From contig CAKOOU010000001.1 of NCBI GenBank assembly GCA_934098455.1, positions 199,933-263,932 of the forward strand: a DNA stretch of 64,000 bases, read 5' to 3'. The DNA comes from an uncultured Bacilli bacterium (GTDB lineage: Bacteria; Bacillota_I; Bacilli_A; RF39; UBA660). The position numbers were made by a program, and so were the translations under genes. This document shows positions 62,026 through 62,857 of this stretch, piece after piece; position 1 is the first letter of the stretch; each line of letters opens with the position of its first letter. A model generated the notes under the pieces. The model saw only the letters and a list, made by a program, of their open reading frames with translations. It did no database searches and had not been told where the DNA came from.

Positions 62026-62088
62026 TATGATAAAAATATGAAAGAAAAAACATTTGACACATATAGTACCAAATGATATTATTTAATT

Positions 62089-62178
62089 AGGTGAGCATTC
62101 AACCCCCTGAAAGTTGGATGTCTACCCTGTCTGAGTAAACATCGGCCCTAACTGAGTTGGCTGATGTCTTTTTATTTT
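62089..62178 (+). ncRNA. Candidate ~90-nt sRNA, copy 1 (putative type I antitoxin)
   Basis: Promoter TTGACA (62054-62059), 17 nt, TATTAT (62077-62082) with a TG extension. 5' hairpin CATTCAAC / GTTGGATG (62096-62120). Terminator ACATCGGCC / GGCTGATGT (62139-62167) plus a T-run. No ORF. Confidence 0.6.
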
Positions 62179-62187
62179 ATATATAAA

Positions 62188-62262
62188 CTATTCTTTATCT
62201 AAAAAGATTAGCATTAAAATAATAATAATTCTATTCAATAATTTTTCAAAATTTTTGAACAT
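62188..62262 (-). CDS. 24-aa hydrophobic peptide, copy 1 (putative type I toxin): MFKNFEKLLNRIIIILMLIFLDKE
   Basis: SD GTAGGTGAT lies 4 nt upstream of the ATG. An extended -10 box TGATATAGT sits at 62350-62342 (minus strand). The stop lies 10 nt from the sRNA T-run in convergent orientation. Confidence 0.5.
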   Translation of the reverse strand: MFKNFEKLLNRIIIILMLIFLDKE

Positions 62263-62498
62263 ATTATCACCTACTTCCCATAAATTCAAAAAGAATCTCA
62301 GTTAGTAAGGTAAACACCAACATGAATGCTCGATTAGTTATACTATATCACTTTTAAATATAAATAAAGTGTTTCGACAAAACCTGTAAAAACTTATCAA
62401 AACACGACAATTTATATAATAAATAATAAATTTATAAAGCATAAAATGATATGAAAAAAACATTTGACACATGCATTGCCAAATGCTATCATTTAATT

Positions 62499-62588
62499 AG
62501 GTGAGCATTCAACCCCCTGAAAGTTGGATGTCTACCCTGATGGAGTAAACATTGGCCCTAACTGAGTTGGCTGATGTTTTTTTTTTAT
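62499..62588 (+). ncRNA. Candidate ~90-nt sRNA, copy 2
   Basis: Promoter TTGACA (62464-62469), 17 nt, TATCAT (62487-62492) with a TG extension. Same 5' hairpin as copy 1. Terminator ACATTGGCC / GGCTGATGT (62549-62577) followed by 9 T. Confidence 0.6.
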
Positions 62589-62600
62589 TTTATATACAAA

Positions 62601-62675
62601 CTATTCTTTATCTAAAAAGATTAGCATTAAAATAATAATAATTCTATTCAATAATTTTTCCAAATTTTTGAACAT
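62601..62675 (-). CDS. 24-aa hydrophobic peptide, copy 2: MFKNLEKLLNRIIIILMLIFLDKE
   Basis: Same frame and length as copy 1, with a single F5L change. SD GTAGGTGGT. Extended -10 box at 62763-62755 (minus strand). Confidence 0.5.
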   Translation of the reverse strand: MFKNLEKLLNRIIIILMLIFLDKE

Positions 62676-62857
62676 ATTACCACCTACTTCCCATAAATTC
62701 AAAAAGAATCTCAGTTAGTAAGGTAAACACCAACATGAATGCTCGATTAGTTATACTATATCACTTCTAAATATAAATAAAGTGTTTCGACAAAACCTGT
62801 AAAAACTTATCAAAACTCGACAAATTATATAATAATGAATAAAAATAAATAATCATA

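Follow-up and report, generated by a model that had tools for sequence, protein, structure and literature searches.

A tandemly repeated candidate type I toxin–antitoxin module in uncultured human-gut Bacilli

The repeat unit and its two convergent genes

Toxin–antitoxin (TA) systems of type I are hard to find because their peptides are tiny and unannotated and their RNAs diverge fast. The window analyzed here is the whole of a 64,000-nucleotide (nt) stretch of DNA with a G+C content of ~22%, taken from an uncultured Bacilli bacterium (contig CAKOOU010000001.1, positions 199,933 to 263,932). A 963-nt gap within its long + strand cluster of cell-envelope polysaccharide genes holds a direct repeat of two units, each with a + strand gene for a small RNA (sRNA) of ~88 nt that converges with a − strand gene for a 24-residue peptide. 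Both the peptide and the 88-nt RNA were missed by gene callers. Each ~410-bp unit is probably a chromosomal module of the type I TA kind, built on the Gram-positive ‘3′-overlap’ design and belonging to a new family. As a candidate, the module appears credible and well delimited, and it would rest on no new principle.

The unit is 410–413 nt long and its two copies are 94–96% identical, which bears out the duplicated tandem module of ~412 bp described in an earlier note on this DNA, all of whose elements were located (Table 1). Two RNA cores, of 28 and 23 nt, each occur exactly twice in the 64-kb window against 0 expected, and the whole unit was found again in other genomes; the repeat is therefore beyond chance. 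The earlier note had held that only two copies were available to judge conservation, but 12 aligned copies and 7 further strain variants were recovered from related human-gut “uncultured Bacilli” assemblies. Within the unit, a 40-nt inverted repeat joins the two transcription-start regions; it is the only long inverted repeat and is internal to the unit.

The sRNA gene starts at a promoter that had been read as near-consensus and TG-extended, a reading borne out by the match of both copies to the sigma-70 consensus (Table 1). The −35 and the motif TGnTAT(T/C)AT are kept in 12/12 copies, except that L011_b has TAGACA for TTGACA, and the sequence upstream of them is unrelated. With its ends placed from the promoter and the U-run, the sRNA is predicted to fold into a 5′ hairpin (GCAUUCAAC/GUUGGAUGU) followed by an 8–9-bp GC-rich hairpin with a U-run. 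It contains no conserved open reading frame (ORF), and its length and fold agree with the ORF-less RNA of ~85–90 nt with 5′ hairpin and terminator that had been proposed. The loops CCCCCUG and CUAACUGA(G/A) are invariant across the 12 aligned copies, and the stems vary. Between the two groups of copies, window-type and diverged, the terminator stem changes from CAUCGGCC/GGCUGAUG to AUCCGUCC/GGCGGAUG, one compensatory pair included, and 94% of its alignment cells are paired compared with 30–54% in slid controls. Hairpin 1 is retained in both groups with its apical stem rebuilt; RNAalifold run on hairpin 1 over both groups found no common fold, the stem register being different. A role of the + strand RNA as a riboswitch or leader, already discounted in the earlier note, was rejected: behind the terminator come ~300 nt of antisense sequence, a separate promoter serves the downstream gene, and the whole unit is simply missing in close relatives.

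The − strand promoter has no good −35, and in some copies its −10 motif is altered or less strong. A leader of ~72 nt comes next, then a Shine–Dalgarno (SD) sequence and the 24-codon ORF; these parts, as first described, are all present in both copies, and F5L is the sole amino-acid difference between the two window peptides. The SD is predicted to be paired in 12/12 copies, with P(unpaired) of 0.00–0.21. The peptide is hydrophobic (grand average of hydropathy 0.83). A 33-residue frame starting at TTG was also considered and rejected: an in-frame TAG closes it in the other group-A copies, and the 24-residue frame is therefore the conserved one.

The hairpin shared with the sRNA is a poor terminator on the − strand, where only UUU follows it, and better − strand terminators lie within the + strand promoters. 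The peptide mRNA therefore probably spans the entire sRNA gene. The 3′ overlap at a shared terminator that had been proposed stands as an overlap, but its − strand extent does not, the mRNA probably running on through the sRNA. The − strand terminator is present in window-type copies and in L026, there with different stem bases.

Table 1. Positions of the features of the tandem repeat and its surroundings in the window
Feature	Positions	Strand	Remarks
Unit copy 1	~62045-62455		
sRNA promoter copy 1, TTGACA-17-TATTAT, TG-extended	62054-62082	+	11/12 vs sigma-70 consensus
sRNA copy 1, proposed antitoxin	62089-62176	+	~88 nt; fold -26.7 kcal/mol, z = -3.1
sRNA copy 1 hairpin 1	62090-62126	+	C-rich loop CCCCCUG, then variable linker
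sRNA copy 1 terminator hairpin	62139-62166	+	Loop CUAACUGAG, then U-run
Extended -10 TGATATAGT, mRNA copy 1	62342-62350	-	Read from sequence; transcription start site placed near 62335
Clamp 5′ arm copy 1, GAGCAUUCAUGUUGGUGUUUACC	62309-62331	-	Pairs with 62126-62093
Anti-SD ACCUUACU copy 1	62304-62311	-	Conserved in both groups; pairs with SD in minimum-energy fold
SD GUAGGUG copy 1	62268-62274	-	Predicted paired, P(unpaired) 0.06
24-codon ORF copy 1, MFKNFEKLLNRIIIILMLIFLDKE	62188-62262	-	TAG stop included
Clamp 3′ arm copy 1	62093-62126	-	Complement of sRNA hairpin 1
Likely mRNA terminator copy 1, hairpin and U-run	62042-62075	-	Inside sRNA promoter
Conserved 40-nt block copy 1, TTCGACAAAACCTGTAAAAACTTATCAAAAC...	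62373-62412		30-70 nt upstream of - strand -10
Unit copy 2	~62455-62857		
sRNA promoter copy 2, TTGACA-17-TATCAT, TG-extended	62464-62492	+	11/12 vs sigma-70 consensus
sRNA copy 2	62499-62589	+	~91 nt; fold -27.1 kcal/mol, z = -3.3
Extended -10 TGATATAGT, mRNA copy 2	62755-62763	-	
Clamp 5′ arm copy 2	62722-62744	-	
Anti-SD copy 2	62717-62724	-	
SD GUAGGUG copy 2	62681-62687	-	
24-codon ORF copy 2, MFKNLEKLLNRIIIILMLIFLDKE	62601-62675	-	TAG stop included
Clamp 3′ arm copy 2	62503-62536	-	
Likely mRNA terminator copy 2, hairpin and U-run	62452-62487	-	Inside sRNA copy 2 promoter
Conserved 40-nt block copy 2	62786-62825		
Third TTGACAC promoter	62858-62886	+	Homologous to sRNA promoter to ~+10; cf. 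empty-site promoters in L035, L036
5′ neighbour, 1083-residue fusion of O-antigen ligase, GT1 and WecG/TagA domains	58756-62007	+	
3′ neighbour, Glucos_trans_II membrane protein gene	start 62970	+	

The same or nearly the same contigs as that of the window occur in human-gut metagenomes, those of the Hadza and others. On the left of the repeat, the 1083-residue polypeptide combines an O-antigen-ligase-like membrane domain, a GT1 glycosyltransferase and a WecG/TagA/CpsF transferase, a three-domain fusion that many contigs from gut metagenomes share down to ~52% identity. At 61981–62028, an inverted repeat of 20 nt (90% complementary) with a T-run behind it overlaps the stop codon of this gene; it is the terminator of the gene and the left boundary of the repeat region. 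On the right, past ~+10, the third promoter diverges into the 5′ untranslated region (UTR) of the Glucos_trans_II gene; it is the native promoter of that gene and marks the right-hand edge of the repeat. Elsewhere in the polysaccharide cluster, a 720-residue ORF at 47505–49667 has no Pfam match.

Copies in other genomes and their conservation

Copies in other genomes were recovered with two probes and by synteny. The first probe, an 18-mer from sRNA hairpin 1, is blind to the ORF and matched three other species-level metagenome-assembled genomes, all at the same genomic site, with one unit in L018, two in L011 and three in tandem in L013; tandem copy number at the site of the window is 1–3. 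The second probe was a loose pattern, the back-translated layout of charge and hydrophobicity of the peptide. It gave four chance matches in DNA of 40% G+C and four true matches in assembly OIYG01: L024 is the syntenic single copy, and the other three are diverged copies, 75–78% identical in nucleotides, at other loci. One of these lies between the MGDG-synthase operon and lexA (L019), one upstream of a gene for a YfhO-like membrane protein (L023) and one upstream of perR–rubrerythrin (L026). A synteny search at the lexA locus yielded seven more strain variants. Neither the rest of the window nor the other retrieved loci contained further copies. In L027–L045 (e.g., L028, 2270–2374, − strand) and in L019 at ~12370–12470, a conserved 34-residue hydrophobic ORF, MKKYLFDYKEVILFYLSIIISFVVLYFRYKYLNT, with a GGAGG SD stands first in the MGDG-synthase operon, which diverges from lexA; this second small membrane protein, of a size that goes unannotated, has no relation to the 24-residue peptide.

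Conservation within the unit is uneven between the window-type and the diverged group. The ORF is the best conserved block (87% identity), followed by the sRNA terminator hairpin (81%), the mRNA 5′ segment with the anti-SD and the clamp arm (78%) and the block upstream of the − strand promoter (78%); the sRNA linker (44%), the middle of the 5′ UTR (42%) and the unit tail (34%) are far less alike. Whether homologous repeats elsewhere would keep the small ORF had been set beforehand as a test of the TA reading, and 24 codons with the same stop position were found in 11/12 aligned copies, including copies only 75–78% identical in DNA. The exception is L013_c, in which a +1 frameshift at codon 21 leaves 22 residues. 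The start codon is ATG in nine of the 12 copies and GTG in three, and an SD motif, AGGUG or AAGGUGG/AAGGGGUG, stands 5–8 nt before it in 12/12, within a 5′ UTR that is 42% identical. In the ORF, the groups differ by three synonymous changes, by I14V, M17I and I19L, by L8F and L9M in two copies, and by TAG to TAA at the stop. The block upstream of the − strand promoter, 40 nt long, is flanked by spacer of 34–52% identity; checked by eye as a −35 element, an extracytoplasmic-function (ECF)-type promoter, a LexA box or a CodY box, it fits none of these.

The lexA-locus variants, a small sample, were recovered by synteny and are thus unbiased regarding the ORF. In L042, a 107-nt deletion takes the − strand promoter and most of the leader and the sRNA gene is kept; in L040, the start codon ATG has become ATA, together with R11K, V14A and L19F, and the sRNA gene is again kept. 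A toxin–antitoxin pair predicts that damage falls on the peptide side and spares the sRNA, and in this small sample the pattern would fit such a pair.

Close relatives lack the unit. At the lexA locus, relatives with LexA 86–92% identical (e.g., L028, 2225–2505) have a 260-nt gap that is a clean empty site, and relatives at the site of the window, whose 1080-residue protein is 93, 82, 70 and 60% identical, have gaps of 86–218 nt without the unit. On both sides of the ~400-nt unit in L019 (12470–13000) stands an imperfect direct repeat of 13 nt, AAACA(T/A)TTGTTTG, and this repeat overlaps the −35 of the lexA promoter. In 4/4 genomic contexts the unit has the same orientation and stands directly upstream of the promoter of the neighbouring gene. 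The homology of the third promoter to the sRNA promoter up to ~+10 suggests recombination at promoter −35 regions as the route by which units insert or amplify. Recombination at such promoter-like TTGACA sequences could have spread and amplified the units, giving 1–3 tandem copies here and single copies elsewhere. Several copies, amplification in tandem and presence that varies between close relatives, all seen in the module, are known traits of type I loci on chromosomes (PMC2887945).

Such behaviour could also be that of a miniature mobile or recombinogenic intergenic repeat, like Correia, RUP or BOX elements, with outward promoters and terminators and with RNAs and an ORF that are incidental. 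The presence/absence polymorphism, the copy number of 1 to 3, the direct repeat around the L019 insertion and an IS30-like remnant within the L013 array would all suit an element of this kind. However, the unit ends showed no terminal inverted repeats, and no copies were detected in phage and plasmid collections or in viral contigs: blastn with the unit against plasmids and phages returned nothing or short chance matches only, tblastn with the peptide against them gave no match, and scans of viral contigs with three patterns gave none either. The internal features are, moreover, far better conserved than the unit ends and spacers, and the compensatory changes described below indicate selection on RNA pairing. 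A mere mobile repeat is therefore highly improbable, and mobility would be compatible with a TA identity.

Two rearrangements were seen among the copies. Between copies a and b of the three-copy array in L013 (CAKOOJ010000002.1, reverse strand, ~1215–2110) lies an ~880-nt remnant of an IS30-like transposase gene; it has a frameshift, an N-terminus of the helix-turn-helix type and inverted ends in which GGATATCC occurs. In L003 (7244–8205), copy 1 of one strain carries both single-nucleotide differences of copy 2 (F5L and the A-to-G after the SD), a pattern consistent with gene conversion between tandem copies.

The 5′–3′ clamp, the proposed mechanism and its alternatives

The ~300-nt − strand RNA is predicted to fold with z = −4.5 and −3.9 in the two copies, its 5′ end pairing with the complement of the sRNA 5′ hairpin. 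Helix 1 of this clamp consists of GAGCAUUCA paired with UGAAUGCUC. For copy 1, the clamp duplex is worth −27.4 kcal/mol compared with −12.6 ± 3.3 in shuffles, and the cognate duplexes of all 12 copies lie between −23 and −30 kcal/mol against the same shuffles. When arms are exchanged between groups, window-type 5′ arms make poor duplexes with diverged 3′ arms (−15 to −19 kcal/mol), whereas diverged 5′ arms reach about the cognate level with window-type 3′ arms (−17 to −29 kcal/mol). The specificity of the arms is thus one-directional.

The clamp also covaries. In an alignment built from the paired segments only, the full MAFFT alignment having shifted the register, 96.7% of cells pair compared with 32–39% when the partner is slid, and the covariation score was reached by 0/500 shuffles. 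Both partners have changed in four clamp pairs; three of these changes separate the groups and one occurred within the diverged group, and only ~3 independent lineages contribute to this signal. These compensatory pairs support an mRNA that reads through the whole sRNA gene, and the G–U pairs in the clamp favour the − strand. Gene conversion between short, interrupted inverted repeats is a less likely source of the changes. The 5′ segment of the mRNA resembles the sRNA in the same sense: the two share GAGCAUUCA, UUGGNGUNUACC and CUAACUGA in window-type copies and GAACGUCY instead in diverged copies. Owing to this likeness, the 5′ end and the 3′ UTR of the mRNA are complementary to each other in all copies.

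In the mechanism proposed here, the weak extended −10 promoter on the − strand would give an mRNA of ~300 nt that encodes a small hydrophobic peptide of 24 residues, probably membrane-active. The SD of this mRNA would be locked by the conserved upstream anti-SD ACCUUACU, and the first ~23 nt of the mRNA would clamp onto its own 3′ UTR as a second closure beside the SD lock. From the near-consensus + strand promoter would come the ~88-nt sRNA, lying inside the mRNA 3′ UTR and perfectly complementary to it, the 3′ arm of the clamp included. The sRNA would probably dock through its loops CUAACUGA and CCCCCUG and extend into a long duplex; decay of the RNase III type and opening of the clamp would follow, as with SR4 on bsrG mRNA, and the peptide would not be made. 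Promoters, hairpins, the conservation of ORF and SD, the 5′–3′ complementarity with its compensatory changes and the variation in copy number and presence are what sequence and comparison contribute to this scheme. By analogy with characterised systems, RNAs with the proposed ends would be made, the peptide would be toxic, the sRNA would neutralise it and RNase III would take part. The conservation of ORF, SD, sRNA promoter and hairpins supports the candidate novel type I pair that had first been suggested, in which the word toxin stands for a presumed activity of the peptide.

Two variants of the mechanism were set aside. Pairing of the C-rich sRNA loop with the toxin SD was dropped as the main mechanism: it comprises five or six interrupted pairs and is inconsistent across copies, and a whole-RNA duplex search for this pairing gave no informative signal. 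A switch of SD accessibility by the sRNA through opening of the clamp is unsupported, as the SD stays paired either way in ensemble calculations. A more far-reaching version of the TA reading can also be drawn. It holds that the family is confined to a clade of uncultured human-gut Bacilli and that the mRNA 5′ UTR is a maintained, condensed, same-sense copy of the sRNA, on the basis of the motifs GAGCAUUCA, UUGGNGUNUACC and CUAACUGA that the 5′ UTR and the sRNA have in common. The sRNA would then vie with the mRNA 5′ end for one site in the 3′ UTR, a contest that would set the stability of the mRNA, its degradation or its activation, and the units would insert preferentially at the −35 of host promoters, back-to-back with stress and envelope genes. 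In this full form the proposal is doubtful.

Several observations weigh against a type I TA module. The hydrophobic run of the peptide, a caveat raised in the earlier note, is indeed short for a membrane span, with 10 uninterrupted residues or 14 when LLNR is counted. Type I toxins commonly end in a polar or basic tail, unlike the acidic C-terminus (DKE) of this peptide. No − strand terminator was found in L019 or L023, the conserved 40-nt block upstream of the − strand promoter is left unexplained, and blocking the 3′ UTR in the calculation leaves the predicted accessibility of the SD unchanged. The conservation of the ORF also has to be read with care. The peptide pattern fixed the second positions of codons 6–24 and left diverged copies with broken ORFs invisible, and the conservation of these codons in the three diverged copies is partly by construction; the unbiased evidence in those copies consists of the start, the SD, codons 1–5, the stop and the synonymous changes. 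The copies found without this bias have too few ORF changes for a test of nonsynonymous against synonymous substitution (dN/dS). RNA-level selection could explain part of the conservation, since the 5′ third of the ORF lies within a predicted hairpin: this takes in the first 11 codons, and the sole hypervariable site, the third position of codon 5, falls in its loop. Overall, the evidence that the 24-codon ORF is coding is moderate and partly biased by the way in which the diverged copies were found.

The last of these points lead to a repeated non-coding RNA element, in which the + strand RNA would act in trans through its C-rich loop on SD sequences elsewhere, the − strand RNA would serve as a structured sponge or antisense RNA, and the frame would be kept by RNA constraint only. 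The invariant loops CCCCCUG and CUAACUGA amid variable stems, ORF conservation that is high even at synonymous sites, the position of the one hypervariable ORF site in a hairpin loop and the shortage of changes for dN/dS are as such an element would have them. Against it, SD, spacing and a start at ATG or GTG persist despite a 5′ UTR of 42% identity, stop and length are kept in 11/12 copies, and TAG has changed to TAA and not to a sense codon. Every replacement is hydrophobic-for-hydrophobic or charge-conserving, and the start-less copy is the one with three accumulated replacements. A conserved anti-SD is, moreover, purposeful only if the SD is used. A purely non-coding element is thus distinctly unlikely.

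The RNA mechanism could also serve a convergent sense/antisense pair that controls a small membrane peptide other than a toxin, for instance a micropeptide for envelope glycosyltransferases or for membrane stress, with no addiction or growth arrest. The short hydrophobic core and acidic C-terminus of the peptide would be at home in such a pair. Three of the four contexts adjoin genes for membrane glycosyltransferases (Glucos_trans_II in the window, the YfhO-like protein in L023 and the MGDG-synthase operon in L019), and the unit orientation is identical in 4/4 contexts, directly before the promoter of the neighbour. However, the neighbours vary (lexA, perR, glycosyltransferases), and close relatives lack the unit without other change. 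Toxin genes typically show tandem amplification and a heavily locked SD (PMC2887945, PMC3834814), and decay strikes the peptide side and leaves the sRNA. A peptide of this non-toxin kind is unlikely, and a type I TA-like module is the reading carried into the comparison below.

Relation to known type I systems

The earlier note had matched the peptide to none of the Fst, TxpA and BsrG families, and the searches agree. The 24-residue peptide matches 0 families of Pfam and NCBIfam (hmmscan, E ≤ 10), libraries that presumably include Fst. A phmmer search with the 33-residue frame against 1.84 billion representative proteins gave one chance-level match only, in a 1590-residue protein; exact look-up of the 33-residue TTG-extended ORF showed that it is not on record as a called gene, and the peptide string was not found in the literature searched. 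With Rfam, the whole window has 0 matches at the gathering score, and at E ≤ 10 either strand gives only a sub-threshold match to NsiR1, on the terminator hairpin, which was rejected as chance (23.8 bits against a threshold of 39 bits). The module does not belong to the BsrG/SR4, Fst/Ldr, TxpA, Hok, TisB, Ibs or ShoB families or to other curated toxin families. The searches made turned up no earlier description of type I TA in this very AT-rich uncultured gut lineage.

Several features by which type I systems are recognised are nevertheless found here. The unit encodes a hydrophobic protein of <70 residues in an otherwise non-coding intergenic region and, at the level of sequence, a cis antisense sRNA gene with its own promoter and terminator that is complementary to the mRNA. 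This complementarity requires an mRNA that reads past the shared hairpin, and the 5′–3′ covariation supports such read-through. Tandem duplication in one intergenic region and presence or absence between strains were used by Fozo et al. to discover type I families (PMC2887945). In T1TAdb, SD/anti-SD pairing, 5′–3′ interactions and a 3′-side antisense RNA are descriptors of Gram-positive type I systems (PMC8594479); the module has a conserved anti-SD with the SD paired in 12/12 copies and a clamp with four compensatory pairs.

Among known systems, bsrG/SR4 is the closest counterpart. The bsrG mRNA is 296 nt long, its nt 1–35 pair with nt 232–262 next to the terminator, and its SD is held within a helix; SR4 enters the long bsrG helix at its 3′ arm, stimulates decay dependent on RNase III and makes the SD helix tighter, and it has a promoter stronger than that of bsrG (PMC3834814). 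The module resembles this system in its convergent genes, with an sRNA complementary to the 3′ part of a toxin mRNA of ~300 nt, in the placing of the ~35 nt at the mRNA 5′ end in a long helix with the 3′ region just before the terminator, in an sRNA target that includes the 3′ arm of the helix, in a double-stranded SD and a small hydrophobic peptide, and in an antitoxin promoter much stronger than the toxin promoter. Conversely, the peptide is unrelated and has 24 residues instead of 38; the sRNA is half as long (~88 vs. ~180 nt), lies wholly in the 3′ UTR and does not reach the ORF; and the sRNA promoter contains the mRNA terminator. Known from sequence alone, the module occurs as a chromosomal repeat with several copies, amplified in tandem, whereas bsrG/SR4 is a single prophage-borne locus.

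Other systems share single aspects of the design. Like txpA/RatA, bsrE/SR5 and yonT/SR6 of B. subtilis, the module is convergent with a 3′ overlap, and RNase III-dependent decay of the duplex would be expected; there is no sequence similarity to them, and their overlap reaches the ORF (PMC8594479), which is not the case here. Fst/RNAII (par of pAD1) likewise has two genes converging on one hairpin, a small hydrophobic peptide and an SD sequestered within 5′ structure, and its interaction runs through direct repeats at the 5′ ends and a shared bidirectional terminator. In the module, by contrast, the two 5′ regions are of the same sense instead of complementary, the hairpin in common terminates poorly on the − strand, and pairing runs along the 3′ UTR. 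Of the analogues that had been named for this locus, bsrG/SR4 thus proves the best match, and the terminator sharing of Fst/RNAII fits less well.

The ldr/rdl (LDR), ibs/sib (QUAD) and zorO/orzO loci of E. coli are likewise direct repeats of ~0.4–0.5 kb, each a toxin–sRNA pair; they lie in tandem in one intergenic region, and strains differ in having them (PMC2887945). Their sRNA, however, lies at the 5′ side of the ORF or over it, their sequence is unrelated and they belong to a different phylum. In hok/sok and aapA1/IsoA1, a long-distance 5′–3′ interaction also holds the full-length toxin mRNA closed, but their antitoxin pairs with the 5′ side and 3′ processing activates the mRNA, whereas here the sRNA would pair with the 3′ partner of the clamp.

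With 19 natural variants, among them two natural knock-outs of the toxin side, the module is a compact and comparatively well-supported test case. It could tell whether the clamp-invasion design of bsrG/SR4 is a general Gram-positive solution or a peculiarity of Bacillus, and the peptide, if toxic, would be among the shortest type I toxins known. Judged by its sequence and by analogy, the module would work like bsrG/SR4 but stand outside that and every other curated family, as a new family of the type I TA kind. What sets it apart from the known examples is a very short peptide, an sRNA wholly within the 3′ UTR and clear of the ORF, an mRNA terminator inside the sRNA promoter, and a constant placement and orientation before the promoter of a host gene in 4/4 contexts.

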